In this document: positions 13,067-64,000 of the stretch, piece after piece | Numbering within the stretch: position 1 is the stretch's first letter | Layout of the letters: each line of letters begins with the position of its first letter | Assembly (NCBI GenBank): GCA_900315125.1 | Contig: OMXT01000019.1 | Coordinates: 1,240 to 65,239 of the forward strand | From: an uncultured Eubacteriales bacterium | GTDB taxonomy: Bacteria > Bacillota > Clostridia > Peptostreptococcales > Anaerovoracaceae | Direction: 5' to 3' | DNA length: 64,000 bases | Notes under the pieces: model-generated | Seen by the model: only the letters and a program-made list of their open reading frames with translations | Databases searched by the model: none | What the model was told of the DNA's origin: nothing | Program-made: the position numbers and the translations under genes

Positions 13067-14266
13067 ATGATGAAGTACTTGGTTATGCCGGATTCGTTTA
13101 AGGGGACTATGAGCGCGGACACGGTATGCCGCGTGATCGAGCAGACTTTGGAGAAGAGGGATCCCGGAGTCCGGGTGGTATCCGCTCCTGTTGCCGACGG
13201 CGGCGAAGGGACCGTGGACTGTATTCTCCGGACGGTTCCGGGAAGGAAGGCGGAGGTTGAAGTCCTGGGGCCGGATGGAAAGGCGCTGGGGGCGTACTAC
13301 GGGGACTTCGGCGATTACGCGGTCATAGAGATGGCATCAGCGGCGGGGTTCCTGTCTGAGGATCAGCCCCGGGATCCGTCGCGGATGACGACATTCGGCG
13401 TCGGGAGCATGATCCGGGACGCCATAGAGACGGGGCACCGCCATATATATCTTGGCCTTGGGGGCAGCTGCACCAACGACGGCGGAGCCGGCATGGCTGC
13501 GGCTCTCGGAGCTCGGTTCCTGGATGAAGAGGACGAGGAGTTTCTTCCTGTGGGCAGGAGCCTGAACCGGATTCGCCGGATCGATGTATCGTCTCTGAAG
13601 CAGCGGATACAGGGCGTGAAATTTACGGTCATGAGCGATGTGACCAATCCGCTGTACGGGCCTAGGGGAGCGGCCCAGGTATTCGGACCCCAGAAGGGCG
13701 CGGATCCGGACATGGTGAAGCTGCTGGATGAGAACCTGGCGGACTACGCTGCGGTCCTGCAGAGAGAACTGGGCGTCGACGTCCGGGATCTTCCCGGAGG
13801 CGGAGCGGCGGGCGGCATGGGCGCGGGCTGCCGTGCTTTTCTGGACGCGGAGCTGAAGAACGGCATAGACGTTATATTAGATCTGATGAAGTTCGATGAA
13901 CTGGCGGCGGACGCGGATCTGGTCATCACCGGCGAGGGCAAGCTGGATTCCCAGAGTCTGGAGGGCAAGGTGATCAGCGGGATCCTGAAGAGGGCCGGTC
14001 GGCTGGGTATCCCGGTGGCAGCGGTCTGCGGCATCATAGACGGCAATATGGAAGTATTTGACCGGGCTGGGTTGAGTTACGCGGTCCAGGTCATGCCCTC
14101 CATAGGATACGGCAGCCATTACCGCAGGCCGGACGGTACGCCGGATTATGAGAAGGCGCTTGAGGCGGCGGTTTCCGGGCAGGCAGGAGCGTTCCGGGAA
14201 CTGTGCCGGCTGGGCGGCAGACGCAGGCAGATGAGAAAAGAGAAGGAAAAGGAGAATGACAGATGA
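13067..14266 (+). CDS. glycerate kinase
   Basis: MKYLVMPDSFKGTMSA...PVADGGEGTVD and GEGKLDSQSLEGK motifs. ATG 13067 lies 7 nt after GAAAGGAAG. Confidence 0.85.
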   Translation: MMKYLVMPDSFKGTMSADTVCRVIEQTLEKRDPGVRVVSAPVADGGEGTVDCILRTVPGRKAEVEVLGPDGKALGAYYGDFGDYAVIEMASAAGFLSEDQPRDPSRMTTFGVGSMIRDAIETGHRHIYLGLGGSCTNDGGAGMAAALGARFLDEEDEEFLPVGRSLNRIRRIDVSSLKQRIQGVKFTVMSDVTNPLYGPRGAAQVFGPQKGADPDMVKLLDENLADYAAVLQRELGVDVRDLPGGGAAGGMGAGCRAFLDAELKNGIDVILDLMKFDELAADADLVITGEGKLDSQSLEGKVISGILKRAGRLGIPVAAVCGIIDGNMEVFDRAGLSYAVQVMPSIGYGSHYRRPDGTPDYEKALEAAVSGQAGAFRELCRLGGRRRQMRKEKEKENDR

Positions 14267-16264: not shown

Positions 16265-16969
16265 ATGGAACCGAAATATAAGCGGGTCCTCCTGAAGATC
16301 AGCGGCGAGGCGCTGGCCGGAGACGGGAAGACCGGCATAAACGAGGACATGACGGACAAGGTAGCCCTTGAGATCAAGCAGCTCATCGATCTGGGCGTGG
16401 AAGTGGCTATCGTTGTGGGAGGCGGCAACTTCTGGAGAGGCCGCAGCAGTGAGAGGATGAACCGGGAGACAGCGGATTATATCGGCATGCTGGCTACGGT
16501 CATGAACAGTCTGGCGCTGCAGGACGCGCTGCAGGCCCGGGGCGTGCCCGCCAGGGTCCAGTCATCCATCACCATGCAGAAGGTGGCGGAGCCCTATATC
16601 TGGCGCCGCGCCATGAAGGAGCTGGGAGACGGCGAGGTCGTCATCTTCGGAGGCGGCATAGGCGAGCCTCATTTTTCCACGGACACAGCGGCAGCGCTGC
16701 GGGCGGTGAATATCCAGGCGGATATGATCCTGCTGGCCAAGAATATCGACGCGGTCTATTCTGCGGATCCGAAGGAAGATCCCAATGCGGTTCGATACGA
16801 TGAGCTTACCATGAAGGAGGTCATCGACCAGGGTCTGAAGGTCATGGATCTGACAGCCGCTACGATATGCATGGAAAATAACATGAAGATCCAGGTATTC
16901 GGTCTGGCGGAGGAGAATTCCATGGTCCGGGCCGTCTGCGGAGAGAAGATCGGAACACTGATCCGCTGA
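16265..16969 (+). CDS. pyrH: UMP kinase
   Basis: YKRVLLKISGEAL...VVGGGNFWRG; first gene of the conserved pyrH-frr-uppS-cdsA block. Confidence 0.95.
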   Translation: MEPKYKRVLLKISGEALAGDGKTGINEDMTDKVALEIKQLIDLGVEVAIVVGGGNFWRGRSSERMNRETADYIGMLATVMNSLALQDALQARGVPARVQSSITMQKVAEPYIWRRAMKELGDGEVVIFGGGIGEPHFSTDTAAALRAVNIQADMILLAKNIDAVYSADPKEDPNAVRYDELTMKEVIDQGLKVMDLTAATICMENNMKIQVFGLAEENSMVRAVCGEKIGTLIR

Positions 16970-28385: not shown

Positions 28386-28415
28386 AGTTACTAACTCTAG
28401 AGTTACTAACTCTAG
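28386..28415. repeat. 15-bp perfect tandem duplication containing a 14-bp palindrome, upstream of the ATPase gene
   Basis: AGTTACTAACTCTAG occurs twice (28386-28400 and 28401-28415). The junction forms the perfect palindrome TAACTCTAGAGTTA (28392-28405). It lies 35 nt upstream of ATG 28451. Confidence 0.8.
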
Positions 28416-28450
28416 AGTATACAATTAAACGGCAAAGAAGGGACAATAAT

Positions 28451-29818
28451 ATGTTTTATGGGAGGAACAGGGAACTAAAAGAGCTGGAACGTAGGTGTTC
28501 CAGCGGCCGGAAAGAGTTCGGCGTGATATACGGCAGACGAAGGATCGGCAAATCTGTACTGGTCAGACATTTCTTTGAAGGGAAAAGGGGAGTCTTTTTT
28601 CAGGCGAAGCAGGATACGTCCTATGGTAATCTCCGTTCCTTCTCCTACGAACTGAACAAAGTCATGGGTCTTCCGCTTTCCTTCGTTTATTCAAGCTGGC
28701 AGGAAGCTTTTGATGCAGTGCTGCAGGCGGCAGGAGACGAAAGATTCCTGTTTGTCATCGATGAATATCCGTATATTGTTTCCCAGGATCCATCTTTCCC
28801 TTCGACCTTACAAGAATACGTGGACCGGGCACCGAATAATATGTTTATGCTGATCCTTGGGAGTGACGTTTCTTTCTTAAAGAATGAGCTGGAGGATAAA
28901 AAATCCCCCCTGTATAAGAGACGCACTTTTGAGATGCGGATCGGTAAAATGCCTTTTGATGAAGCGGTTTTATTTCTGACAGGAATGCCGACAGAGGAGA
29001 AGTGTGCATATCTTTCCCTGATGTCCTCCTACCCGTATTATCTTGCGTCGATTGACAGGGCTGCCTCTTTTGAAGAGAACATGGAGCGGCTCTTTTTCAA
29101 TGAATTCGGTACATTCTTCAATCTGCCGGATCAGGTTCTTTCAAATTCCACAAAAGTTCAGGACGTGTATAACGCCATTCTTCGGTCGGTTGCTCACCGA
29201 CATTATACGGTAAAGGATATCAGCATGGATATCCATGAAGAGAGCAGCAAGGTCTCCAAATATATCAAGACCCTTTTGAAAAGTGAGATTCTGGAAAAGC
29301 GGTCGACGTTTATGGGAAATAAAAACAGCCACTATTATGTGATTTCCGACCCCATGCTGCGATTCTGGTATCTCTTTATCTATGACAGACAGGAACTGAT
29401 ACGGGTCAATGGAGAAAAGGTGCTTTCCAGCTTGTCAGTTATGATAAAAGATTTTCTGGACAGAGGCTTTGAAGATACGGTGCTGCTTTTTCTGGATCAG
29501 GAGAACAGAAAAGGAAATCTTCCAGGTGTATTTCCGGAAATTCAGAATTTCAGGGCTGATAAGACCACACTGGGGCGATCTGTGGAAATCGACGGTCTTT
29601 CCCGCTCCGGAGATACGCTTCTGGTAGTGGAATGCAAATACCGAAAGAAATATTTTTCGAATGCCATGCTGGAGCACCTCAGGGAAAGCGCTTCGATCTT
29701 TTCGGAAAAGCTCAGCAGGCAGTATTATATCTTCTCAAAATCCGGGTTTTCTTCAGATATAGAACAGGCGAACAATGTTCACTTGTATACCGCAGAGGAC
29801 ATGTTCGGATTTGAGTAG
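28451..29818 (+). CDS. ATP-binding protein (archaeal-type ATPase with DUF234-like C-terminus)
   Basis: MFYGRNRELKELE...YGRRRIGKS (Walker A) and FVIDEYPY (Walker B). The length and C-terminal region are typical of the Arch_ATPase/DUF234 family, recognised from memory. Confidence 0.65.
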   Translation: MFYGRNRELKELERRCSSGRKEFGVIYGRRRIGKSVLVRHFFEGKRGVFFQAKQDTSYGNLRSFSYELNKVMGLPLSFVYSSWQEAFDAVLQAAGDERFLFVIDEYPYIVSQDPSFPSTLQEYVDRAPNNMFMLILGSDVSFLKNELEDKKSPLYKRRTFEMRIGKMPFDEAVLFLTGMPTEEKCAYLSLMSSYPYYLASIDRAASFEENMERLFFNEFGTFFNLPDQVLSNSTKVQDVYNAILRSVAHRHYTVKDISMDIHEESSKVSKYIKTLLKSEILEKRSTFMGNKNSHYYVISDPMLRFWYLFIYDRQELIRVNGEKVLSSLSVMIKDFLDRGFEDTVLLFLDQENRKGNLPGVFPEIQNFRADKTTLGRSVEIDGLSRSGDTLLVVECKYRKKYFSNAMLEHLRESASIFSEKLSRQYYIFSKSGFSSDIEQANNVHLYTAEDMFGFE

Positions 29819-51020: not shown

Positions 51021-51902
51021 ATGAAGAAGTTTACAGGAAGTGATAACTATGTGGCGTCCAAGGAGCTGATGAACGCCGTAAATGTAGCCATGGCGCTGGA
51101 GAAGCCTTTGCTTATCAAAGGCGAGCCCGGCACGGGCAAGACCATGCTGGCGGAGTCTATCGCTGAGGCTCTCGACATGCCCCTGATCATCTGGGGAATC
51201 AAATCCACTACCAAGGCCCAGGAAGGCCTGTATGTCTACGATACGGTTCAGCGCCTCTATGACTCCCAGTTCGGCGAAGGCAACGTGGCAGATATCGCCC
51301 AGTATATCAAGCTGGGGAAACTGGGAGAGGCGTTTACGTCTGACCAGCAGGTCGTACTGCTTATCGATGAGATCGACAAGGCGGACCTGGAGTTCCCCAA
51401 CGACCTGCTCTGGGAGCTGGACCGCATGGAGTTTTATATCAATGAAACAAAGGAAACGGTCACCGCGAAGCACCGCCCGGTGACCATCATCACGTCCAAC
51501 GCGGAGAAGGAACTGCCGGACGCGTTCCTGCGCCGCTGTATTTTCCACTATATTGAGTTCCCGGATGAAGAGAAGATGCGGGAGATCATTCGCGTTCACT
51601 TCGGGGACATCAATAAACGGCTGGTGGACTCTGCCCTCGGCGCCTTCTATTCTATCCGTCAGATGAATGAGATCCAGAAGAAGCCCAGCACATCGGAGCT
51701 GCTGGACTGGATCCAGGCCCTGAAGATCAGCGGTATGGATACGTCCCGGATCGAATCGGAGATTCCTTATGTCGGCGTGCTTCTGAAGAAAAATCAGGAT
51801 ATCGACCGGCTCCGTGAGAGCCAGGGAAAGACGGTGACTGGCTCCGGCAGCTCCGGAAGAAACTCTCGCAGAAACGGCTATGGTTACGGAAACCGCTGGT
51901 GA
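51021..51902 (+). CDS. MoxR-like AAA+ ATPase
   Basis: Walker A GEPGTGKT and Walker B LLIDEIDKA; the size and layout match single-AAA MoxR/AAA_5 proteins. Confidence 0.8.
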   Translation: MKKFTGSDNYVASKELMNAVNVAMALEKPLLIKGEPGTGKTMLAESIAEALDMPLIIWGIKSTTKAQEGLYVYDTVQRLYDSQFGEGNVADIAQYIKLGKLGEAFTSDQQVVLLIDEIDKADLEFPNDLLWELDRMEFYINETKETVTAKHRPVTIITSNAEKELPDAFLRRCIFHYIEFPDEEKMREIIRVHFGDINKRLVDSALGAFYSIRQMNEIQKKPSTSELLDWIQALKISGMDTSRIESEIPYVGVLLKKNQDIDRLRESQGKTVTGSGSSGRNSRRNGYGYGNRW

Positions 51903-51908
51903 TGCCTT

Positions 51909-53102
51909 ATGTTTATTGATTTTTTCTATACGCTGAGAGCTTACGGACTGGACGTGTCCCTGGATGAATGGCTTTGTCTCATGGATGCGCTGGATCAGGG
52001 ACTGGCGGAGAATTCTTTGCTGGAGTTTTATTATCTCTGCCGCAACGTGCTGGTCAAGTCCGAGTCGGACTACGATACGCTGGACCAGGCATTCGGCGCT
52101 TATTTTCAGGGAATCGAGACCATCGATGATATCCCCGATGAGCTGAAACAGTGGCTGGCGGAAGATGGTCTGGAACGGGACCTGGAGGATATGCCCGACT
52201 GGGCGAAAGAATACGATATGGACACCCTGCGGAAGATGTTCGCTGAGCGTCTTGCGGAGCAGAACGAACGGCACAACGGCGGGAACTACTGGGTAGGGAC
52301 CGGCGGTACGTCGCCCTTCGGAAACGGAGGATGGAATCCGGCGGGGATACGGGTGGGCGGCGCCAGCCGCCATAGATCTGCGGTGCAGGTGGCAGCAGAC
52401 CGGAACTTCCGGGATTTCCGCGAAGACAACGAGCTGGACACCCGTCAGTTTCAGATGGCCTTCCGCAAGCTCCGTCAGTTTTCTTCCCTCATCGACGCGG
52501 CGCCCACGGAGCTGGATGTGGATGAGACCATCGACGCCACATGCGATAACGCAGGTCTCCTGACCCTGGTCTACGAAAAGCCTCGGCGCAACACGGTCAA
52601 GCTGCTGATGCTTATGGACTCCGACGGCTCCATGCAGGAGTACAGCGAGCTGTGCAGCCATCTGTTCCAGGCGGCTGACCAGTCCTCCCATTTCAAGGAC
52701 TTCCGGACTTATTATTTTCACAACTGCATATACGATCACGTCTACACGGACCCGTACTGCGTGAACGGCCGGTGGATCGATACCCAGTGGCTCTTTGGGA
52801 ACCTGGACTCCGAGTACAAAGTCATCCTTGTTGGGGATGCGGCGATGTCGCCCTATGAGCTCTACTCTCCCGGAGGCAACCTGGACTGGTACGCCTATAA
52901 CGAGGAACCGGGCATCGACTGGCTCTGGAAGTTCCGCCGCCGCTACCGCAATTCCGTCTGGCTGAACCCCATCCCCGCCCGCCGCTGGGAGCATGCCTGG
53001 GGCGCCCGCACCATCTCCATGGTCCGGGACGTCTTTCCCATGTTCGAACTGACCCTGGACGGCTTGGACGCCGCCATCCGCAAGCTGATGAGCGGCAGGT
53101 AA
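51909..53102 (+). CDS. VWA-domain protein, CoxE-like (MoxR partner)
   Basis: The N-terminus FFYTLRAYGLDVSLDEW is typical of CoxE-like proteins. The C-terminal VWA-like region starts LLMLMDSDGSM. It lies 6 nt downstream of the MoxR gene. Confidence 0.7.
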   Translation: MFIDFFYTLRAYGLDVSLDEWLCLMDALDQGLAENSLLEFYYLCRNVLVKSESDYDTLDQAFGAYFQGIETIDDIPDELKQWLAEDGLERDLEDMPDWAKEYDMDTLRKMFAERLAEQNERHNGGNYWVGTGGTSPFGNGGWNPAGIRVGGASRHRSAVQVAADRNFRDFREDNELDTRQFQMAFRKLRQFSSLIDAAPTELDVDETIDATCDNAGLLTLVYEKPRRNTVKLLMLMDSDGSMQEYSELCSHLFQAADQSSHFKDFRTYYFHNCIYDHVYTDPYCVNGRWIDTQWLFGNLDSEYKVILVGDAAMSPYELYSPGGNLDWYAYNEEPGIDWLWKFRRRYRNSVWLNPIPARRWEHAWGARTISMVRDVFPMFELTLDGLDAAIRKLMSGR

Positions 53103-53184
53103 TCCCGCGTCCGCAAGCTGATGAGCGGCCGGCAGTCCCGCGTCCCGGACCTGTCTGGTAACTTTGGGCTTGTCGGACTGCAGC

Positions 53185-54033
53185 TTAATCAATAGTGTGA
53201 ACAAGAGGAAGAACTACGCCGCGGATAATCTGATCTATCAGCGCTGTATTTATTCCGCCGTCCCTGCTGTCGCCGGTGACTATCAGATTATAACCCGGTG
53301 TGATGCCGTTCTGCTGATAGAGTTTCATCTTTTCTGAAGTCGATATGCGGTAGCCTTCTTTGTTAAGAAGTCCAAGGTGCTCCCAGTACAGTTTCGTTCC
53401 GTCACGAAGCAATATCGTAAAGTCAGGGTACCGCAGCACTTTTTCCCGATCGCCGTTTATCAGCACCAGGCGTTCATCGTAGCGGAATGGGATTTTGTAG
53501 CGCTTTAAAAGATTGTAAATTATCAGATCGCCCTTAGATCGGACCTTTGTTCCATCCACGGCGATACTGTCCATGTCCGGAAATGTCATAGGGTTCTTCT
53601 TGTATTCTGCCAGAGCCCATTCTTTGATTTCCTGCTTGCTGAAATCTGTCTGAAGTGCTGCAGGAAGCAGTCGATAAGAATCCGGGAGAGACTGCGTTAC
53701 GGATTCGGGGTCATATTTTTGGTATGCGCTCAGCATCTCAGTCAGGAGCTGCTGGTTTTCAACGAGACGTTTGCGTATCTCGCGGTAGACCTTTGCTTTC
53801 TTGAGCGACTGCACCTGAGTGTTTCCAGGTCCTCCAAGATATTTCCATTGTCGTTTGCGCTTGCCGTCAACCTGTTTCGAATTCACATGATAATATTTGA
53901 GCTTATTATTTTCTATGCGGCAAGCCAGGCATCCATCTTCGTTTTCACTGGAGAATGGAATCTTGTCGACTATTTGAATTAAAGCTTTAATGCGATCCAG
54001 CTCGAGGTGAGCTTCCGTAATGAATGAGTTCAT
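53185..54033 (-). CDS. hypothetical protein with PD-(D/E)xK / Vsr-like nuclease signature in the C-terminal half
   Basis: ATG 54033 follows AAAGGAA. The C-terminal pattern VRSKGDLIIYNLLKRYKIPFRYDE ... RYPDFTIL ... KLYWEHLG resembles restriction-endonuclease-fold cores. The gene is visibly AT-richer than its neighbours. No family name recognised. Confidence 0.5.
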   Translation of the reverse strand: MNSFITEAHLELDRIKALIQIVDKIPFSSENEDGCLACRIENNKLKYYHVNSKQVDGKRKRQWKYLGGPGNTQVQSLKKAKVYREIRKRLVENQQLLTEMLSAYQKYDPESVTQSLPDSYRLLPAALQTDFSKQEIKEWALAEYKKNPMTFPDMDSIAVDGTKVRSKGDLIIYNLLKRYKIPFRYDERLVLINGDREKVLRYPDFTILLRDGTKLYWEHLGLLNKEGYRISTSEKMKLYQQNGITPGYNLIVTGDSRDGGINTALIDQIIRGVVLPLVHTID

Positions 54034-54265
54034 AGGCGATTTCCTTTCACAGATAAGTAATGACGATAAGTAACAGCTTATGCTATGCATCTTTAGCGTT
54101 TTCACCACCTTAGCACACGAAAACTGTTATGAAAAGGTTTTTCTTGTATATTTTTAAAAGAATACAGAATTATAAGGTAAAATTATCATTACCAAATTAG
54201 ATAAATCGCAATTTCTTAGCGTTACCATACAAGTGTTTTTTACCAAACTATGGAGAAGCAGCCGC

Positions 54266-54760
54266 GGTAGACAACCCTGGCCGTAATTTGACGCGATGGT
54301 AGACCCAGGAGGGCGGTATAGGTCTACCATCGCGTCCGAGGCAGGCCGCGGTAGACAACCCTGGCCGTGATTTGATGTTAGGGTAGACCCAGTAGGGTCG
54401 TTTAGGTCTACCATCGGGTCTGAGACAGGCTGCGGTAGACAACCCTGGCCGTGATTTGATGTTAGGGTAGACCCAGGAGGGTCGTTAGGTCTACCATCGG
54501 GTCTGAGACAGGCTGCGGTAGACAACCCTGGCCGTGATTTGACGTTAGGGTAGACCCAGGAGGGTCGTTTAGGTCTACCATCGCGACCAAGACAGGCTGC
54601 GGTAGACAACCCTCGCTGCAATTTGACGTCAGGGTAGACCCAAGAGGGCAGTATAGGTTTACCATCGCGTCCGAGGCAGGCCGCGGTAGACAATCCTCGT
54701 TGCAATATAGAGCAAGGGTAGACTCAGAGCCCGATATGGTGGGAGAAAGTTCGGACCATC
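54266..54760 (+). repeat. tandem array, ~5.9 copies of an 84-bp unit (left array)
   Basis: The GGTAGACAACC register is at 54266, 54350, 54434, 54517, 54601 and 54685, so the period is 84 with one 83-bp copy. Each unit is GGTAGACAACC - 21 nt - GGTAGAC - 16 nt - GGTCTACC - 21 nt. The last copy is degenerate. Confidence 0.9.
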
Positions 54761-54761
54761 G

Positions 54762-54790
54762 TTGTTTTTTCTCGTATTCTGCGGTACAAT
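54762..54790 (+). promoter_or_regulatory. candidate promoter of the Nudix-jetABCD operon
   Basis: TTGTTT (54762-54767), 17-nt spacer, TACAAT (54785-54790). It lies just after the array and 50 nt upstream of ATG 54841. Confidence 0.4.
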
Positions 54791-54840
54791 GACGGGAGAA
54801 AGTTTGTGAAGGTTAGAACGCAAAAATCGCAGGAGAAACA

Positions 54841-55845
54841 ATGTGCGCGCAGAATGACAGAAAAACAGACGGGTCCAGCAGAGGCCTGAAAATAGAGAAG
54901 TCCATGGCCAAACAGGTCTTTGATGAGAAATTCCTTAAGGTGTATGATCTGCAGTATGAACCGGGCCGGCATTATTTTGACGCTACCCGGCGCAGCGCCG
55001 AAGACCTGGTGGCGCTGAAGGAGGACGGAGAATTCCGGAGCATGCTCCCGGATGCGGTCAGCTGTTTCGTGATCATTGATAACGGCAGCGAGAATAGTGA
55101 CGGCGCGAGCAACGGCGCAGCAAGAGCTGCAGGCGCACTGTCACCGGACATGATGTCGCCGGATGAGATCGCGTCAGCGTGCGCGGCGAACCGTGCGTCA
55201 GCGTCAGCGAGCGCGGCAAACCGTGCGTCAGCGTCAGTGAGTGCAGTAAATCGCGCGGCAGACGGTGTAGCAGACAGCGCGGCAAACCATGCGGCAGACG
55301 GCCCTTTGCTGCTGCTGGCTCGGGAGTACAGGTATCCGGCGGGCCGGTATCTTCTCAGCGTGCCCGCGGGGCTCCTCGATCCGGAGGATCAGCAGGAGAA
55401 GGATCCGCTGGTGAACGCGGCTGCCCGGGAGATCCACGAGGAAACGGGGATCGTCATCGGGGAGCATGACCGGATCTGGGCAGTGGATTCTTTCGTATTC
55501 AGTACGCCGGGCATGACCGATGAGAGCAATGCGCTGATGTGCGCTGTGATCAACGGGAACGCGAGAGCAGCGGAGGATCCAGGGGCTGCGGCGGAAGCGG
55601 GAGCAGGAACGCCGGGAACAAAGCCCGGGCAGATCTTTGTTTCCGGACACAGAGATACGGCAGAAGCCATCGGCCTGACCCAGTCCGGAGCCGTCGGATC
55701 AGAGAAGTTCGACGGCTTCGTGCTGCTGAACCGGGATGAGGCGAAGCAGGTCCTGGAAGAGGGCAGAGATTCCGAGGGCAACCCTTATCCGGTCTACACA
55801 TGGGCAGCCCTGATGTATTTCCTTTCGGACATGTGGAAACGGTAA
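54841..55845 (+). CDS. Nudix hydrolase (ADP-ribose-pyrophosphatase-like) with low-complexity insertions
   Basis: Nudix box GLLDPEDQQEKDPLVNAAAREIHEETGI. ATG 54841 follows AGGAGA (alternative ATG 54904). The stop lies 4 nt before the jetA ATG. An in-frame 30-bp tandem repeat at 55171-55296 encodes AANRASASAS-type segments. Confidence 0.75.
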   Translation: MCAQNDRKTDGSSRGLKIEKSMAKQVFDEKFLKVYDLQYEPGRHYFDATRRSAEDLVALKEDGEFRSMLPDAVSCFVIIDNGSENSDGASNGAARAAGALSPDMMSPDEIASACAANRASASASAANRASASVSAVNRAADGVADSAANHAADGPLLLLAREYRYPAGRYLLSVPAGLLDPEDQQEKDPLVNAAAREIHEETGIVIGEHDRIWAVDSFVFSTPGMTDESNALMCAVINGNARAAEDPGAAAEAGAGTPGTKPGQIFVSGHRDTAEAIGLTQSGAVGSEKFDGFVLLNRDEAKQVLEEGRDSEGNPYPVYTWAALMYFLSDMWKR

Positions 55846-55849
55846 TCAT

Positions 55850-57337
55850 ATGACGAACCTTTTTGACATGATCCCGGAAGGGTTCTTTAATCTGCTGAGC
55901 AGCGGGAGCAACAGCAGGGTATATGCAGACTGCCTGGAGCTGATCTATGACGAGTTCAGCCATGAAATATCTTACAGAGCCAGAAGGGAACGGATCAGGG
56001 ACATTCTGGCTTCTTATTTTCTTGAGCACAGGCTGGAGCCGGCAGACCAACTGGAACCGGCAGACGCATCGGGCGACGGTACTTCCGCGTCTGCCGCTCC
56101 CGCGGGTCTCAGCCCTCAGGATACCGCCAATGCCGTGCTGCGCCGCTTTACGGATCCCAGGATCGGTTGGTTAGAGGAGGACAATGACGACGAGACCTAC
56201 GAACGCCACATCGTCATGACCGAGTCCGGCATTCGGCTGGCGGAGCTGATGATCACGCTGAAAAAGCCAGAAAAAGAAGAATACACATCCTATATATTCG
56301 CTATCAGAAACTCCCTTTTGAGCCGGGAGCAGTGGGAGGCTGATCCCTATGTCAATGTGCTGAGGGATGTTTACCGGAACGCCCGCCTCCTGTCCAAATC
56401 CCTTAAACGTCTGTCTACATTTATCAAGAACATCATACAGGACATGGTCCAGGAACAGAGCCTGGAGAGCCTGACGGAGAACCTGCTGTCCTATTGCGAG
56501 GGCGATTTCATCCGGGAATACGCCCGTCTTTCCAAACAGCAGAACATCCGCATATACCGGCGTATGATCCAGGAAAAGCTGGATCATTTCCGGGATGACG
56601 AGGACACGCTGGAGCAGCTGACCAGTGCCTGCGCGGCAGAAGAAGAGCTGAGCGAAGAAGGAGCGCGGGAGCATGTGCTGGACATGATCCAGGGAACGCG
56701 TCAGTTCCTGAGTGATGATTATGACCAGATCATGAGGGATATAAAGCACAAAATCAATCTCTACCTGACCATCGCTATCGGGCGGGCAAGATTTCTGCGC
56801 AGCCGCTCCGCTGACGCCCGAGGCAGCGTGGAACAGGCGGTCCGTCTGCTGGTGAGCGAAACAGAGGCAACAGGACTGATGGACGAACTGCCCGAAGAAC
56901 AGCGAGCCATGTTTTTGTTCGATCAGAATGACTTTCTCGATGAAGGATCTTTGCGATACCCGGGACGCCAGCTTGCCATACGGAAAAGTGTATCACAGGT
57001 CTACCAGGAAATGACGGAGGAGGACATCGCTGAGGCGCGCAGAGCTCAGGAGAAAGCAGCAGCCAATCCCTATTCCCTTAAGCGGGTGGGAGAATATATT
57101 GAAGAGCAAATGGGCGACGTACGCCAGATCGAAGCGGAGCAGCTGCCGATGAACAGCCGGCGGGAACTGCTCATGGCTCTGGCTGCCGCTGTATACGGGC
57201 AGGAGCTGGGCTATGAGGTCATACCGGAGGAAGGCTATGTAGAGTCGCAGCAGCTGATGATCCGCAATTTCGCGATTCGAAGGAGAACGATGCAGAGAAG
57301 TGATATAGTGGAGGGGACGCAAACGCATGAATTTTGA
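55850..57337 (+). CDS. jetA: Wadjet JetA (kleisin-like, DUF3375-type)
   Basis: 495 aa, first of four overlapping genes whose sizes and order (about 495/245/1088/518 aa) match JetABCD. Assigned mainly by operon architecture. Confidence 0.7.
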   Translation: MTNLFDMIPEGFFNLLSSGSNSRVYADCLELIYDEFSHEISYRARRERIRDILASYFLEHRLEPADQLEPADASGDGTSASAAPAGLSPQDTANAVLRRFTDPRIGWLEEDNDDETYERHIVMTESGIRLAELMITLKKPEKEEYTSYIFAIRNSLLSREQWEADPYVNVLRDVYRNARLLSKSLKRLSTFIKNIIQDMVQEQSLESLTENLLSYCEGDFIREYARLSKQQNIRIYRRMIQEKLDHFRDDEDTLEQLTSACAAEEELSEEGAREHVLDMIQGTRQFLSDDYDQIMRDIKHKINLYLTIAIGRARFLRSRSADARGSVEQAVRLLVSETEATGLMDELPEEQRAMFLFDQNDFLDEGSLRYPGRQLAIRKSVSQVYQEMTEEDIAEARRAQEKAAANPYSLKRVGEYIEEQMGDVRQIEAEQLPMNSRRELLMALAAAVYGQELGYEVIPEEGYVESQQLMIRNFAIRRRTMQRSDIVEGTQTHEF

Positions 57338-58064
57338 AGAATACTGGGACAGCTGCACGGCGTCGGAGCGGGATCAGTTCCAGCGGACGGTCCGCCGGCT
57401 CCTGAAAACCACGTTTATTGTCCGTGACAAAGACGAGATCAGCAAGTCCGCTTATTTTTTCGTGTCGAAGCGGCAGGAAATGTTCACGGAATACCTGAAA
57501 TACATAGGTTTCGACGTAGCATTGGACAGGGACAACGGTGTAGTCATGCTCCGCAATGCAGCTGACTCTGCCGAATTTGGCAGGATCCAGTCCAACCGGG
57601 TGGCGCTGAAAAAGATCGACAGCATCATTCTCTGCAGCCTGTGGACCATCTATGCAGGGAAGATGAGGGACGGACTGGTAAAGAACGTCATGGTTTCTGT
57701 GGCTGAGCTGCGCTTTGAGCTGGAGAAGTTCGGCGTAAGAGAACAGGTGAACCGGAAGGTTCTGGAGTCATCTCTTAAACTGTTTTCCAAGTTCAATCTG
57801 CTGAAGATACACGGTGCTGTAGGAGAACCGGACTGCATGATACAGCTGTACCCCTCCATGCAGTTTGCCCTGGATACGGAAGCATTCCGAAAGTTCGTGA
57901 AGTCTGCGGCAGAACGCATGAACGAGAACCGGGAAGAGATCAGCTGGGTAATGTCTTCGGAGGAGTCATTGGAGGACGATGGGGCTGACCCGGATACGGA
58001 TAGTGAAGAGTCTGATCCTGAGGATGAGTTCTCAGAAAACGAATCGGAGGAGGAACGCCCATGA
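57327..58064 (+). CDS. jetB: Wadjet JetB (KITE-like, DUF4194-type)
   Basis: 245 aa with an acidic C-terminal tail; overlaps jetA by 11 nt. The segment LLKTTFIVRDKDE...YLKYIGFDVALDRDNGVVMLRN fits the DUF4194 pattern from memory. Confidence 0.7.
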   Translation: MNFEEYWDSCTASERDQFQRTVRRLLKTTFIVRDKDEISKSAYFFVSKRQEMFTEYLKYIGFDVALDRDNGVVMLRNAADSAEFGRIQSNRVALKKIDSIILCSLWTIYAGKMRDGLVKNVMVSVAELRFELEKFGVREQVNRKVLESSLKLFSKFNLLKIHGAVGEPDCMIQLYPSMQFALDTEAFRKFVKSAAERMNENREEISWVMSSEESLEDDGADPDTDSEESDPEDEFSENESEEERP

Positions 58065-61000
58065 AGGTCGTAAGCCGCAAGACAGCTACGAGAATGCAGA
58101 TCATAAACTGGTCTCGCTTTCAGAACGTAACATTCCGCATGGAAGGCTCCGTGCTGCTGACGGGAGCGAACGGCAGCGGGAAATCGACGATCCTGGACGC
58201 TGTCACATACCTGCTGACTGGAAATACTCAATTCAACAAGGCGGCAAAAGACAGAGACCGCACCGTGCTTTCCTACGTCCGTGGCGACACCAACAGCAAC
58301 GGTGCCCAGCGTTTTCTGCGGCAGGGCAGCGTCATATCCTATCTGGCTATGGAGTTCCGCTCGCCAACAGAGAAGGAAGTCTTCGTCTGCGGCGTATGCA
58401 TCGAGTCCGCCACAGAAGCGGATTACCGACCGAATTGGTTCGTGCTTCATGACACATCGCTTGAGGATGTCAATTTCGCCCGGGTGGAAGAGGGAAGGCT
58501 GATCGTCACGCCCAGGAATGAGCTGACCGCAGGCGGGCGCCCTGTCAATGCCCGTGCGTTCATGGCCAGAGATACGGGCGTCCGGCAGGTCATGCGTGCC
58601 ATGGGACTGCGCTACGATCCCCGGAAATACCGTTCCAAGCTCATCCGCATGCTGGCATTCAATCCGGAAAATAATATTGACCGGTTCATCCAGGACTGTG
58701 TGCTGGATCCGGGCAAAGTCGATTCTCTGAAGGAAGTCCGGGAACAGCGGGAGAAGTTCGAGGAGCTGAAGCGCCTTTACGACAATCTGCGGGGTTGCAG
58801 GGATAAACTGGAGATCTGCGAGCAGCGCGCCCGGGATTACGAAGGGCGGCGGAGGCGCCTGCGCATCGATGAGATGATGCTGGATCATCAGGAGCTCTGC
58901 GCCCTGAAGCAGGAGACAGAAGAGAGCCAGCGCCGGGAGGCCTTTCTGGAACAAAGGCTTGTTCGCCTGGGTGACCAGATCCTGTCCGCGGAAAGCGATC
59001 TGAAAGATGCGGAGCAGCGCCTTATCGTCGCCAGGACCAATGACGTTTATTCCGGCATGAAGAATACGATCAGCGAACTGGAACGCCAGAAGGATCGAAT
59101 GGAAGGGGAGCAGCAGCGGTACCGGGAGCAGATCCGGGAGCTTACTGCGCTCAGAAAGAAACTGGAGTCATTCCTGCAGATGAAGGCGGAAGGTCCAGAA
59201 GAGAATTCCATGAGACTCAGTCCTCAGGACTCCCAGGCGATCACAGAGATGGACCAGGCGGGAAACATGACTGAAGAGCAGAAGGAAGGCTCTTTCCGCC
59301 GCATTGCGGAGGAGGGGAGCAGACTCACACGTTATCTGGGACGGCAGGTCTGGTCCCTGGAAAATCAGTGTGAAGAATATCGGCAGAGACGGGAAGAGCT
59401 CAGCAAACAGATCCACTCTCTGGAAGCGAATATTCAGGTGTTTCCAAAGGAGGCGGAGTCCGTCCGGCAGACACTGGCGTCCGAACTGGAGAAAAGAGGC
59501 ATTCATACTGACGTGCGCTTCGTCGCTGAGCTCGTTCAGGAGGTAAAAGACCCGGGATGGAGAAAGGCGATAGAGACGTTCCTGGGACGGCGCCGGTTCA
59601 ATATCATCATCGACGGAAAATACTGCGGGGACGCGCTGGAGATCGTGAGGGAGAAGTCCCTAAACGGTACAGGCGTCATCATTACGGATCAGCTCCCCGA
59701 CCGGGAGGAAGAACCGGGATCCGCGGCGGAGCAGCTGACGGTTCCCAATATCTTTGCCCGCCGCTACCTGAATTATCTGCTGAACGGGATCCATCTCTGT
59801 GATACGCTGGACGAGCTCCATGAGCATCCGGCAGGAGCGCTTATGAAGGACGGCATGCTGGCAAAGAGCTATGCGGCGTCCCGGATGAATATGAGAAAGA
59901 CCGTTGTCTACTTCGGCAAAGACGCGATCCGCCTGCAGCTCCGGTCTGCCCGGGAGGAAATGAAGCAGCTGGAACAGGAGATGGAAACGGCAGAGAAGGC
60001 TTTGTCCCAGAACCGCAGCAGAGCAGATGCGCTGCGCCGCATCGATTTTTCCGCGGACCGCTATCACATGGATGCTCCGGAGCGCAGCAGGGACACCGCT
60101 GCCCGTATAGACCGGACAGAAAATGAAATCCGCGAGATCCAGGATAACCCGGACTTTCTGGCCGTAATACAGGAAGTGGAGAATGCGGAAGAGGCAAGGA
60201 AACGTGCGGAGCAGGAGCGGAACCGGATCCAGAAGGACCAGATGACATGCCAGCTGAAAGCGGAGGAAGAACGGGCGAAGCAGCAGGAGCTGTCGGAGCA
60301 GATCTGCGCTGCACAGGAAGCCTGCCGGCAGTCCCAGAGCCAGTATCCGGAGCTGGTGGATGTCATGAAAAAGGAATACGAAGAACGGCGCAGGCGCCTT
60401 GGACGGCCAAGAGTCCTGCAGCAGCAGACGGTACAGAAACTGAGGGGCGAACTCAGTGAAAAATACGAGAATGCGCTGATCTCTGCCCAGCTGGACTACT
60501 GCCGGCTGGCGGGTGCGGATATGAATCGGTTCGGTCCGTCCTATATCAGCTTTTACCGAGATGAGTACCGGGATGTAGCGAATGTCAGGATCGAGGAAGC
60601 TCAGAGCCGCCTGGACAGTCAGGGCGACCGGCTGGAGAGCGCGTTTATGACGGACTTCGTGGCGGAGCTGAATGAGAAGATCCGCGCTGCCCGTGGGGAG
60701 CTCAGCGCCATAAACAGGGAACTTCGGGAACTGCCCTTTGGGCAGGATACCTATCGGTTCGTCGTCAGGGAAAAGGCGGACCGGGCGCCCTTCTTCCGGA
60801 TCTGCCGCGGGCTGGAGAAGTATATGGACAATGCGGAAGCCTACATGAATTCTGACCGCAGCGACGAAGCCATGGAGACGGATATCCGTGAGTTTATGAA
60901 CATGATCCTCGATGAAGAGGACGAGTCAGAATATACGGATTACCGAAAATACTTTACATATGATATGGAGATCACCAGCCGCCAGGGCGGGGAAGAAGTC

Positions 61001-61327
61001 CAGGCGGAGCTCTCGCGGAAGCAGGGCTCGGCCAGCGGCGGCGAAAAACAAACGCCCTATTTTATCATTCTTGCGGCGAGTCTGATGCAGTGCTATCCCA
61101 GAAACGTCTGCTGCGCCCGTCTGGCCTTTATCGACGAAGCCTTCTCCGCCATGTCGCCGGAACGGATCGAGCAGATGGTTCGTTACTTTAACGACAACGG
61201 ATTCCAGGTCATCTACTCCGCGCCTCCGGAGAAGATCGGGAGCATCGGGGAGCACGTGGGTTCCATCGTGAGCCTCGTCATGACCGGAAGGTACACCAAT
61301 GTGGTAGAGGGGCTGATTGAAGTATGA
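58061..61327 (+). CDS. jetC: Wadjet JetC (SMC/MukB-like ATPase)
   Basis: Walker A GANGSGKST at the N-terminus, about 700 aa of coiled coil, then C-terminal ASGGEKQ signature and Walker B LAFIDEAF. ATGA overlap with jetB. Confidence 0.85.
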   Translation: MKVVSRKTATRMQIINWSRFQNVTFRMEGSVLLTGANGSGKSTILDAVTYLLTGNTQFNKAAKDRDRTVLSYVRGDTNSNGAQRFLRQGSVISYLAMEFRSPTEKEVFVCGVCIESATEADYRPNWFVLHDTSLEDVNFARVEEGRLIVTPRNELTAGGRPVNARAFMARDTGVRQVMRAMGLRYDPRKYRSKLIRMLAFNPENNIDRFIQDCVLDPGKVDSLKEVREQREKFEELKRLYDNLRGCRDKLEICEQRARDYEGRRRRLRIDEMMLDHQELCALKQETEESQRREAFLEQRLVRLGDQILSAESDLKDAEQRLIVARTNDVYSGMKNTISELERQKDRMEGEQQRYREQIRELTALRKKLESFLQMKAEGPEENSMRLSPQDSQAITEMDQAGNMTEEQKEGSFRRIAEEGSRLTRYLGRQVWSLENQCEEYRQRREELSKQIHSLEANIQVFPKEAESVRQTLASELEKRGIHTDVRFVAELVQEVKDPGWRKAIETFLGRRRFNIIIDGKYCGDALEIVREKSLNGTGVIITDQLPDREEEPGSAAEQLTVPNIFARRYLNYLLNGIHLCDTLDELHEHPAGALMKDGMLAKSYAASRMNMRKTVVYFGKDAIRLQLRSAREEMKQLEQEMETAEKALSQNRSRADALRRIDFSADRYHMDAPERSRDTAARIDRTENEIREIQDNPDFLAVIQEVENAEEARKRAEQERNRIQKDQMTCQLKAEEERAKQQELSEQICAAQEACRQSQSQYPELVDVMKKEYEERRRRLGRPRVLQQQTVQKLRGELSEKYENALISAQLDYCRLAGADMNRFGPSYISFYRDEYRDVANVRIEEAQSRLDSQGDRLESAFMTDFVAELNEKIRAARGELSAINRELRELPFGQDTYRFVVREKADRAPFFRICRGLEKYMDNAEAYMNSDRSDEAMETDIREFMNMILDEEDESEYTDYRKYFTYDMEITSRQGGEEVQAELSRKQGSASGGEKQTPYFIILAASLMQCYPRNVCCARLAFIDEAFSAMSPERIEQMVRYFNDNGFQVIYSAPPEKIGSIGEHVGSIVSLVMTGRYTNVVEGLIEV

Positions 61328-62880
61328 GTAATAAATTGCAGCCAGGCACAGCATCCTCCCCGGACGAGAACATGCTGACCGCCCGCGAACAGGACGCAGC
61401 GATGCCCCTCAGCAAAAGACAGAAAACAATCTTATCCCTCCTGCTGAATAAATACGAGTCAAGCCGCACGTACCGGGGCGAAAACCAGGTCCGCCAGACA
61501 TTCGCCATTACGCCGGAGCAGGTGATGCCGGATTACCATTCCGATTTTGCCGATGTGGCCGACGTCGAAATATTCGAGCGGGAGCTGCGGGATCTGGAGC
61601 GGACCGGGCTGATCACAACTGAAGAAAAAAGCGGAGAAACAGCCCGTATTGTCGCTGCCGCCGGAAAATTTTCTGACTATTACAGTCTGCTCGGTCGCCG
61701 GGAACTGAGGGATCAGGAGAACCAGGAACTCGCTTACTACAAAGGCCTGCTCGGCCGTCATCCGGTGATGGACGGGTTCTGTGAGGAGCAGATCCGGCGC
61801 CTCTCTGATGGGAAGAAAGCCAGATATCCGCTGGATGAAGCGAGGGATATCCTGAAGGCCATGGAATATATTCTGACTAATGAGGAGGACATCCTGGAAA
61901 GGGAGCTTTCCATCGAGCTCTATAGAGATTCCAAGCTGTTTGCCGCCAGGTACCGGAGCAGAGTCGTCCGGCTGCTGGAACGCTACGGCGACGGGGCGGT
62001 CAGGGCTTTGTCAGAGGAGCAGATGTCCCCTCGGGAGCGGGAGGAACAGATCCTGGAAGCCCACGGCATCTATGCTAATCCCACGTATATTTATATGAAA
62101 GGGTCCGGGCGGCTGTATTTCTGCAGCGATCCGCATGTTCTCGGTGATTCGCATATCCATAGCGATTCGTCCGCGCCTGCAGGAGACGACGGGCTGTCAA
62201 AAAGTGGGGGAGCGGCTGCGGACACTGTAATGACCGTGCAGCCGGATTTCGCTGTGGCGTTGTCCTCCGAAGCGCTCCGCCGACTCGTTAGAGTGGAGAT
62301 CGATTCGGATACGGTGATCACTGTGGAAAACCTGACATCCTTCAGCCGGATGAAGCCGGAGGTGGTTCTGCCTGAGACAGCAGTTCCCAGCGAAGCATCT
62401 GGCGATGTTTCGACCCAGCCCGCTTTCCTTATTTATCTCAGCGGGTACCATAATCTGGACAAGCAGAAGTTTCTTCAGCTGATCCGCAGGCGGGATCCTG
62501 CCTGCGCCGGTGCCGCCGAGAAGGATCCCGCCGGGACTGCTCCTGCCCGCGCAGTCCCGAATTGTTCGATTCCGAGCCTTTCAGATGACAGAGCTCCGGA
62601 TCTCACCGATATTCGCTGGCTGCACTTCGGCGATCTGGATCCGGATGGATTCGACATCCTTGAGAATCTGAAGAGCCGGACAGGTCTGCCATTTCAGCCT
62701 TATCGGATGGACGCGTCTCTGCTCCAGAAGTACGAGAACTATGGACGCCCTTTGAATGCCAACGACCGTACCAAGGCCGAAAACCTGATCGAGCAGGGAA
62801 TGTATGTGCTCCAGCTGTCCTACATGCTTGAGCACGACTGCAAGCTGGAGCAGGAAATCATAAGCTGGAAAGAATTGTGA
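61324..62880 (+). CDS. jetD: Wadjet JetD (Toprim-domain nuclease subunit)
   Basis: C-terminal Toprim-like HFGDLDPDGFDILENLK. ATGA overlap with jetC. At 518 aa it is longer than typical JetD because of low-complexity inserts. Confidence 0.75.
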   Translation: MSNKLQPGTASSPDENMLTAREQDAAMPLSKRQKTILSLLLNKYESSRTYRGENQVRQTFAITPEQVMPDYHSDFADVADVEIFERELRDLERTGLITTEEKSGETARIVAAAGKFSDYYSLLGRRELRDQENQELAYYKGLLGRHPVMDGFCEEQIRRLSDGKKARYPLDEARDILKAMEYILTNEEDILERELSIELYRDSKLFAARYRSRVVRLLERYGDGAVRALSEEQMSPREREEQILEAHGIYANPTYIYMKGSGRLYFCSDPHVLGDSHIHSDSSAPAGDDGLSKSGGAAADTVMTVQPDFAVALSSEALRRLVRVEIDSDTVITVENLTSFSRMKPEVVLPETAVPSEASGDVSTQPAFLIYLSGYHNLDKQKFLQLIRRRDPACAGAAEKDPAGTAPARAVPNCSIPSLSDDRAPDLTDIRWLHFGDLDPDGFDILENLKSRTGLPFQPYRMDASLLQKYENYGRPLNANDRTKAENLIEQGMYVLQLSYMLEHDCKLEQEIISWKEL

Positions 62881-62973
62881 GTTGATTCCCTGCTCGAAAG
62901 AGCTTTGGTCAGACTCCGCGAATCGTCTTGCCGTCCTCGTTTTGCTGTCTGTGCATTGCTGTTCTCGACTTGC

Positions 62974-63385
62974 CGTCTACCCGATGGCGTATAGTAGCCG
63001 AGGGTAGATAACCATCGGTCTGTAAACTGCCCATGATAGAGTAAAACCGGGCGTATAGGTCTACCCGCCGGCGTTTAGCGGTCGCGGGTAGACAACCATC
63101 GGTCAGTAAATGGCTCATGGTAGACTAAATCAGGGCCTACAGGTCTACCCGTTGGCGTATAGCGGCCGAGGGTAGACAACCATCGGTCAGTAAATGGCTC
63201 ATGGTAGACTAAATCAGGGCTTACAGGTCTACCCGCCGGCGTATAGCAGCCGAGGGTAGATAACCATCGGCCAGTAAACTGCCCATGGTAGAGTAAAACA
63301 GGGCGTATAGGTCTACCCGATGGCGTATAGCAGCCGCGGGTAGATAACCGGCAGCCGGCAAACGGTATGTGGTAGATGGCCCAGA
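62974..63385 (+). repeat. tandem array, ~4.9 copies of an 84-bp unit (right array)
   Basis: The GGTAGA(C/T)AACC register is at 63003, 63087, 63171, 63255 and 63339, an exact 84-bp period. The motif layout matches the left array (GGTAGAYAACC - 21 - GGTAGAC/G - 16 - GGTCTACC - 21). Copies 2 and 3 are nearly identical. Confidence 0.9.
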
Positions 63386-63432
63386 AGAATCGGTTATCAA
63401 ACGAGAGCAAGTCAATCACTAAGTAACCGCTA

Positions 63433-64000
63433 TTAGCCAAGCAATTGTAAGAATTTTTTATAGGCGGAAGGAATGGCGTATATACGGGAAATGTCGGAAA
63501 CAGGGACCCAAAGCAAGCGGGCGCCCGAGGAGCTTTCCGAATCAGCAATATCAGAAGCATCCGCGGAAACTTCTGCATCTGCAGACTGCGTGATTGCCGC
63601 CTGCCAGTCTGCTGCCCATCCGCCCGCTTCCTGCCTGTCTGCGGACAAGGCGTCTGCAGCCCGCCTGCCTGCATTCCAGCCATCGACAATGATCTGGTAA
63701 CCGGTCATGTGCCACTCGATATGTGAAAATATGTGTTTCGCCGGCGCAGTCTTCTGGATGCTGCCGACGTGAAAACCCAGGGACTCCACCCATTGGCACG
63801 CCTCCGCTTCAGTAAGTGTTCCCACTAGATTAGGAAATTCGAACATGCCCGCAAGGAGACCTTCCGGCGGACGATGCCTGAGCAGGACATATTCATCGCA
63901 AATAGGCGATGCGGCTGCCGTGTCAGTGAACTGCGGCGATTCCGGCTTTACTGCTGTCATCCCGGCCCGCACGTGCCCCCGGACCACAAGCACCGTCCGG
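63433..64000 (-). CDS. mutY: A/G-specific adenine glycosylase MutY, C-terminal (Nudix-like) part; 5' end outside window
   Basis: EGLLAGMFEFPN and KHIFSHIEWHM motifs of the MutY C-terminal domain. The frame stays open to the window edge. It contains an A/D/S-rich insertion of about 50 aa. Confidence 0.75.
   Translation of the reverse strand, partial: RTVLVVRGHVRAGMTAVKPESPQFTDTAAASPICDEYVLLRHRPPEGLLAGMFEFPNLVGTLTEAEACQWVESLGFHVGSIQKTAPAKHIFSHIEWHMTGYQIIVDGWNAGRRAADALSADRQEAGGWAADWQAAITQSADAEVSADASDIADSESSSGARLLWVPVSDISRIYAIPSAYKKFLQLLG

Follow-up and report, generated by a model that had tools for sequence, protein, structure and literature searches.

The described systems closest to the locus considered here join arrays of intergenic repeats to a particular gene or operon in their neighborhood. 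Iterons are tandem direct repeats of 17–22 bp bound by a winged-helix Rep protein at an origin, and they adjoin the gene of their binder, as exemplified by incC/incA of P1 around repA and ori2/incC of F around repE; in some loci they are placed on both sides, their sequences are lineage-specific, and two arrays may pair with each other (“handcuffing”). In type III toxin-antitoxin modules (ToxIN, CptIN, and TenpIN), an array of 34–45-nt repeats immediately precedes a nuclease gene and shares its strand, the promoter being situated upstream of the array and the terminator before the toxin gene; the toxins have the ToxN/AbiQ/CptN/TenpN fold, and the whole is a small stand-alone unit met in variable genomic contexts. 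REP/BIME elements are extragenic imperfect GTAG palindromes alternating in orientation with a period of about 80–90 bp, often situated where convergent genes end, and they occur as hundreds of scattered copies together with a RAYT gene. Finally, parC1/parC2 around parAB of pB171 and the Ter sites of Bacillus subtilis rtp bracket or precede the operon of their binder and double as autoregulatory sites, the binders, which function in partition or fork arrest, being of the ribbon-helix-helix or winged-helix type. Literature searches for the motif described below, for Wadjet together with repeats, and for PD-(D/E)XK proteins together with tandem repeats gave nothing relevant, and no described system found there combines a PD-(D/E)XK homing-type protein with a private array of 84–94-bp three-core units.

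Here, we addressed two arrays of this kind that flank a plus-strand NUDIX–jetABCD operon (Wadjet, an anti-plasmid system) in a 64,000-nucleotide window (the whole stretch of DNA that was analyzed) belonging to a poorly sampled lineage of rumen Clostridia, the best mutY match of which is 57% identical (RUG420). The features concerned are as follows.

53185..54033, minus strand: 282-aa gene preceded by the left array, a possible trans-acting partner of both arrays
54034..54237, minus strand: AT-rich leader between the left array and the 282-aa gene
54238..54740, no strand assigned: left sister array, its orientation and core layout being those of the right array
54741..62974, plus strand: interrupting segment of 8,234 bp (NUDIX, jetABCD, and a 94-nt tail), which appears to break an array in phase
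54785-54790, plus strand: −10-like TACAAT inside the 8,234-bp segment
54841-55845, plus strand: NUDIX gene, first gene of the Wadjet operon
55850-57337, plus strand: jetA of type I Wadjet
57327-58064, plus strand: jetB of type I Wadjet
58061-61327, plus strand: jetC of type I Wadjet
61324-62880, plus strand: jetD of type I Wadjet
62923..62977, no strand assigned: about 3.9 copies of a degenerate 14-bp repeat, TCGTCTTGCCGTCC, at the right-hand boundary of the 8,234-bp segment
62975..63385, no strand assigned: right array with a period of 84 and the core order C, (A B C) four times, degenerate A B
63433..64000, minus strand: 3′ part of mutY, which borders the right array, is convergent with jetD and lies on the strand of the 282-aa gene

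The tandem array behind jetD, proposed originally from a reading of the letters alone, is real: TRF reports 4.5 copies at 62975-63349 with 86% matches, no indels, and a score of 526, and a degenerate last unit extends this call to about 63385, the array comprising approximately 4.5 in-phase units. Its borders were placed correctly, the start being GTCTACC at 62975 (95 nt past the jetD stop at 62880) and the end lying 48–84 nt short of the stop of the convergent mutY (63433); the 14-bp repeats run into the first core. The layout proposed for the unit is exact (11+21+7+16+8+21 = 84) and consists of an A core GGTAGAYAACC, 21 nt, a B core GGTAGAS, 16 nt, an inverted C core GGTCTACC, and 21 nt. In terms of the asymmetric 7-bp core GGTAGAC, each 84-bp unit contains three of them, two direct at a distance of 32 bp and one inverted. 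The window contains 31 copies of GGTAGAC against 3.9 expected, a count reached in 0 of 100 shuffles, and 25 of the 31 fall inside the two arrays. Recent homogenization of the second and third units, suggested from their similarity, is supported by their identity of 93–95%.

Several known kinds of element were compared with the arrays and rejected. A coding repeat is incompatible with a stop in the only long frame of the right array (the open minus-strand frame) and with the 83-nt unit that shifts the frame of the left array, and gene callers call no gene in the arrays on ten contigs. ARAGORN finds no tRNA-like unit; the only Rfam match is a sub-threshold chance one (ar7, 24.5 bits vs. a gathering score of 60), six related loci being likewise without a match. 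A CRISPR array is excluded by whole units repeating at 81–96% identity with no unique spacers, and VIPR repeat RNAs, built of pentanucleotide repeats, are unrelated to the 84-bp arrays. The pattern GGTAGAYAACC-N19-23-GGTAGA-N14-18-GGTCTACC gave zero matches in GTDB species genomes, JGI metagenomes, and IMG/VR, blastn of the array against plasmid and phage collections gave no match, and 80 mutY loci of distant Clostridia contain no related arrays. Identical units at unrelated loci, which the original prediction had named as a refuting outcome, were found in none of the collections searched, and the 73 kb covered by the window and L001 contain no array besides these two and not a single isolated unit.

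The left array (TRF 54261-54697) has 5.2 copies with a partial last unit to 54740 and reads as a degenerate C core at about 54240, (A B C) five times, A B, and a degenerate B–C spacer ending in ..TATGGT; one of its units is 83 nt long. Units are 81–96% identical within an array and only 48–55% identical between the left and the right one. Nevertheless, 33 of the 84 columns are invariant over all nine full units, being clustered in the three cores, and the spacers have equal lengths in both arrays (21, 16, and 21 nt) while their sequences are near random to each other. Conserved cores and spacing amid near-random spacers therefore argue for selection on short sequence-specific sites and on the distances between them, under which both, as judged from this alignment, are maintained. 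With 10.5 bp per turn, 32 bp make about three helical turns and 84 bp about eight. Copy number, whose free variation among close strains had been named as the other refuting outcome, behaves differently on the two sides, so that the result of this check is mixed: the contigs found all stem from near-clonal assemblies of rumen metagenomes, and 10 of 10 carry an identical right array, whereas the left one has three length alleles of about 6, 5, and 2 units, which need long-read confirmation because short-read assemblies can collapse repeats.

Homology to the left array persists to about 54740 (..TATGGT), and the right array commences at 62975 (GTCTACC). Joining 54740 to 62975 yields an uninterrupted in-register array with unit starts at 1, 85, 169, 253, 337, and 421, in which the hybrid unit at the joined junction scores 33.9 bits (E 8.6e-12), and GT is present at both segment junctions, inside the C core. 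By this register, the Wadjet cassette is shown to sit in phase inside the array, and the operon appears to have been inserted into an array of the 282-aa gene; given the degenerate edge of the left array, the probability that the phases match by chance at the junction was put at roughly 5–10%. The ancestral order on the minus strand would be mutY, array, and 282-aa gene, all codirectional. The divergence of the halves by about 50% needs either long independent homogenization or acquisition of the right half from another array or together with the cassette. An insertion-free contig was sought among 22, all of which carry the cassette, and neither a second gene of the 282-aa family nor its remnant was found near the right array, and on the minus strand it has neither a gene nor a remnant of one downstream. 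The chance of a phase match, the divergence of the halves, and the lack of an insertion-free contig among the 22 are counted against the split.

The original prediction considered the right array as a feature of the jet operon, supplying a series of stem-loops to read-through jetD transcripts, and this framing is not supported. JetD of this operon measures 518 aa, some 100 more than usual; none of its homologues falls in the identity range of 40–100%, and six loci with its closest homologues (36–40% identity, short flanks) possess neither 84-bp nor GGTAGAC arrays. At the same time, arrays in the same period range recur beside homologues of the 282-aa gene in genomes that have no Wadjet operon close by. 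As far as comparative evidence goes, the array type is thus shown to go with the 282-aa gene family rather than with Wadjet. The NUDIX protein was considered as an NrtR-like DNA-binding protein and rejected: it resembles ADP-ribose pyrophosphatase with a low-complexity insert. An in-frame 30-bp repeat within its gene (55171-55241, 2.4 copies) encodes an AANRASAS stretch of low complexity, located between the N-terminal part and the Nudix fold.

In its AlphaFold model (pLDDT 86.7), the 282-aa protein starts with a helix, continues through a three-stranded beta-meander and a long helix, and ends in a PD-(D/E)XK domain with the motifs VRSKGE, IPFRYE, RYPDFTI, and YWEHLG. Foldseek aligns the C-terminal domain with phage endonuclease I, TnsA_N, DUF559, and restriction enzymes, and, lower in the ranking, a phage endonuclease and a phage group I intron protein match over most of the alignment; weak PDB matches are Pur-alpha and PC4 for the N-terminal domain and cap-snatching endonuclease, Card1, and Cas4 for the C-terminal one. 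The modeled protein resembles phage homing-type endonucleases, its C-terminal half being of the Vsr, TnsA, or endonuclease-I kind. It has no Pfam, PHROG, or useful NCBIfam match, and PADLOC matches it only to the C-terminal region of the candidate PDC-S68. A family profile search collected 8,782 representatives at E ≤ 1e-3 (3,740 at E ≤ 1e-30); almost all measure 260–290 aa, and the only name given is “hypothetical.” From genome to genome, the gene has unrelated housekeeping genes as neighbors. Identity to the window protein across the family is 17–36% in the N-terminal domain and 39–55% in the C-terminal one; according to this alignment, the former evolves much faster than the nuclease domain. 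In the AT-rich leader, the minus strand contains a promoter-like site TTGCGA-18-GATAAT (54211 to 54182) between the array and the gene, and a weak promoter-like site is present on the plus strand at 54154-54183.

Periodicity of 80–95 bp was detected upstream of 9 of the 19 non-redundant family genes and in 6 of the 1341 control windows (900 nt each, taken from control loci), making the association of arrays with this gene family about 100-fold above background. The loci concerned are as follows.

L098: upstream array of 91 bp x 6.7
L105: upstream array of 91 bp x 5.0, the related L106 having one unit
L107: upstream array of 91 bp x 5.7
L117, L124, and L127: upstream arrays of 84 bp x 2; three-core layout with the core CAAYGGAA
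L110: upstream array of 92 bp x 2; three-core layout with the core GGTAGC
L114: upstream array of 94 bp x 2; core AATCAAGAA, direct cores 33 bp apart upstream of the gene and both orientations downstream
L103 and L109: upstream arrays of 215 bp x 1.8
L126: upstream array of 73 bp x 3
L100: three-core layout with the core AATGATGA, a single unit on each side of the gene

The layout with two direct cores 32–33 bp apart and one inverted core recurs in several loci with lineage-specific cores, and 32 bp is the commonest distance between direct 6-mers across loci (9 of 19). According to sequence predictions, in L105, L117, L124, and L127 the array starts directly after the terminator of the upstream gene; this, together with the promoter-like site that in the window lies between array and gene, argues against sense transcription. 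The correspondence is incomplete: the loci of the closest proteins (L098, L105, and L107; 42–45% identity) have 91-bp long-hairpin units with no obvious three-core layout, the core of L110 is similar to that of the window, yet the N-terminal domains are only 22% identical, and one family member (L170) has no array. As a separate feature of a sub-clade, a conserved non-coding leader of about 110 nt (CCCTGAAAT..ACATTAAAGTATTAAAT..TGCTTTCTTTCCCCATAC..GTAGTCTAC) without Rfam match is situated between the array and the family gene (L098 7890-8000, L105 4795-4905, L106, L107 4895-5000, L109, L115, and L121 4900-5000).

The explanation that we prefer, and regard as evenly poised between right and wrong, is composite: an iteron-like array of protein-binding sites belonging to the 282-aa nuclease family and split at a core by the Wadjet cassette. 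Accordingly worded, the right array would be the distal half of one tandem array owned by the 282-aa gene, the cores of which would be recognized on double-stranded DNA, most likely by the N-terminal domain of the protein. The array may regulate or organize divergent promoters, by autoregulation or nucleoprotein assembly, or else pair with its other half. A break at a core would have captured the 8.2-kb cassette with its own promoter region, NUDIX, and jetABCD, leaving Wadjet bracketed by direct repeats of the same putative binding sites. By analogy, such an array resembles in kind iterons or operator arrays: it adjoins the gene of the presumed binder, occupies both sides of the gene in some family loci, has lineage-specific sequences, and allows one to conceive of pairing between its two parts. 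It differs from iterons in its three-core units of 84–94 bp, in its putative PD-(D/E)XK nuclease-like partner and in its chromosomal position among housekeeping genes, where no origin features are seen. With parC1/parC2 and rtp/Ter it shares the arrangement of arrays bracketing or preceding the operon of the presumed binder, but unlike them no role in partition or fork arrest is indicated. Against binding sites stand the periods of 91–94 bp, which are not whole numbers of helical turns, and the hairpin units of L098, L105, and L107, the N-terminal divergence of L110, and the array-less L170 are counted on the same side.

The pairing potential noted originally does exist, GTCTACC being able to pair with the next GGTAGAC and ACCAT with ATGGT, and it opens the way to an alternative that we find unlikely, in which the arrays function as structured RNA: either as a plus-strand leader (left) and a 3′ series of stem-loops (right) stabilizing or terminating jet transcripts, or as a minus-strand repeat RNA that, like a type III antitoxin, controls the nuclease gene lying downstream. 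Folding is strong (z = −6.2 for the plus strand and −4.2 for the minus strand), stem cells are 98% paired across the arrays, the A–B spacer is a hairpin in both of them, and every one-sided stem change (three or four events in total) leaves a G-U pair on the plus strand, a weak indication that slightly favors single-stranded structure of this strand. The weak plus-strand promoter-like site and the lack of a canonical terminator between jetD and mutY (no G+C-rich hairpin with a T run is predicted in 62700-63600) also agree with the plus-strand version. However, the only covarying base pair, C-G in the left array and A-U in the right one, is a single event, inner stems are out of register between unit types, and the RNAalifold consensus over both arrays did not recover local hairpins. 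The cores are sequence-invariant between arrays whereas other stem positions are free, and two of the three are co-oriented, so only one at a time can pair with the inverted core. Invariant inverted cores amid unrelated-like spacers fit sequence-specific recognition better than simple stem formation, and this invariance, along with the solitary covarying pair, also speaks against stem-loops serving jetD. For the minus-strand version, the position immediately before a co-oriented nuclease-like gene, which the left array and those of many homologous loci have, and the occurrence as a small stand-alone unit in variable contexts are the same as in ToxIN; but the right array has no downstream minus-strand gene, the arrays abut upstream terminators with a promoter-like element between array and gene instead of the opposite order, Rfam provides no match, and both the PD-(D/E)XK fold and the repeat length of 84–94 bp are unlike every known type III family.

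Two further readings concern DNA rather than RNA. One of them, which overlaps the preferred binding-site reading and which on its own we consider quite unlikely, takes the cores for cleavage or crossover points of recombination or mobility sites and the direct arrays for the ends of an exchangeable cassette, permitting capture, excision, or swap of Wadjet. The cassette does lie between direct arrays, with the break inside a core and GT on both sides; core units occur on both sides of the family gene itself in L100 and L114; the protein resembles homing-type and TnsA-like endonucleases, its gene occurs among unrelated housekeeping neighbors in different genomes, and the copy number of the left array differs among near-clonal contigs. 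Yet neither an empty site nor an alternative cargo was found in the 22 contigs, the arrays share identical stretches of only 7–11 bp, no recombinase or transposase is present at the locus, and most family loci have a single array and no cargo. The other, in our opinion very unlikely, assumes lineage-specific REP/BIME-like or slippage-generated intergenic repeats of no dedicated function, accumulated at tolerant island borders. A 35-nt palindrome between the C core and the next A core (GTCTACCCGNNGGC-N8-GCCGNGGGTAGAC) contains GTAG, as REPs do, and lies in their size range of 20–40 nt; the arrays are extragenic, variable in copy number, comparable to REP/BIME in period and alternating orientation, and, on the right, placed at the 3′ ends of convergent genes, and tandem intergenic arrays are known in other rumen Clostridia, e.g., L091. 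In contrast to dispersed REPs, just two arrays and no solitary units are found in 73 kb, no RAYT (Y1 transposase) domain is encoded by about 25 window proteins scanned, and searches for the three-site pattern in GTDB species representatives, JGI metagenomes, IMG/VR, plasmids, and phages found no occurrence. Moreover, the retention of cores and spacing against near-random spacers implies selection, and a single and different protein family is associated with the arrays about 100-fold above background.

Extending the preferred binding-site reading, one may tentatively suppose, although we deem it doubtful, that the locus exemplifies a widespread undescribed two-part module of Clostridia, consisting of a homing-endonuclease-like protein (about 270–285 aa) and its private core array, which acts as a programmed landing pad or exchange site or as paired half-arrays. 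By nicking or breaking the array at a core, the nuclease would capture and bracket defense cassettes, here a complete Wadjet operon; alternatively, the half-arrays would pair, looping out and controlling the cassette. The protein family of such a module comprises thousands of clusters at 50% identity and has no Pfam family. If the preferred reading holds, a very large uncharacterized family (3,740 representative clusters at E ≤ 1e-30) would gain a cis-element partner, and the locus would provide a concrete case of a defense operon inside a repeat array at a recognition core, which bears on gain, loss, and insulation of defense cassettes in gut and rumen Firmicutes and for which one purified protein and a 7-bp site suffice as a direct test. 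It would also correct the natural assumption about ownership: repeats flanking a defense operon need not be that operon’s.

Some other repeats and genes were observed in the vicinity and in related loci. Beyond the 282-aa gene, a MoxR-like AAA ATPase gene (weak NCBIfam matches to MadB and IteA/IetA) and a VWA CoxE-like gene occupy 51021-53102 and may be another defense-type pair. A 33-bp unit TCCGCAAGCTGATGAGCGGCAGGCAATCCCGCG repeated 2.1 times at 53077-53145, before the 3′ end of the 282-aa gene, copies the 3′ end of the VWA (CoxE-like) gene, and this duplication may be the scar of an insertion at that border. On the other side, the gene directly beyond mutY (L001 13583-15088) encodes a DDE transposase with matches to IS66, IS240, and rve; its distance to the right array is about 1.5 kb. 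A perfect 15-bp tandem repeat AGTTACTAACTCTAG x 2.2 occupies window positions 28386-28418, in the gap upstream of the gene at 28451. In Oribacterium, a 91-bp repeat at the jetC–jetD junction was considered as a relative of the 84-bp arrays and rejected, since it consists of the jetC 3′ end in triplicate. Between jetC and jetD, L091 (9753-10001, Oribacterium sp. KHPX15) and L093 (6238-6470) repeat the final 91 bp of jetC 2.6–2.7 times, and the jet operons of these two loci have unusual gaps of 150–200 bp between jet genes. L091 also contains two intergenic tandem arrays, at 13426-13625 (53 bp x 3.8) and 16328-16667 (108 bp x 3.1), which share TTTGGGTCATC and TGACTTAATTTCA and flank a two-gene segment beside the Oribacterium Wadjet locus.
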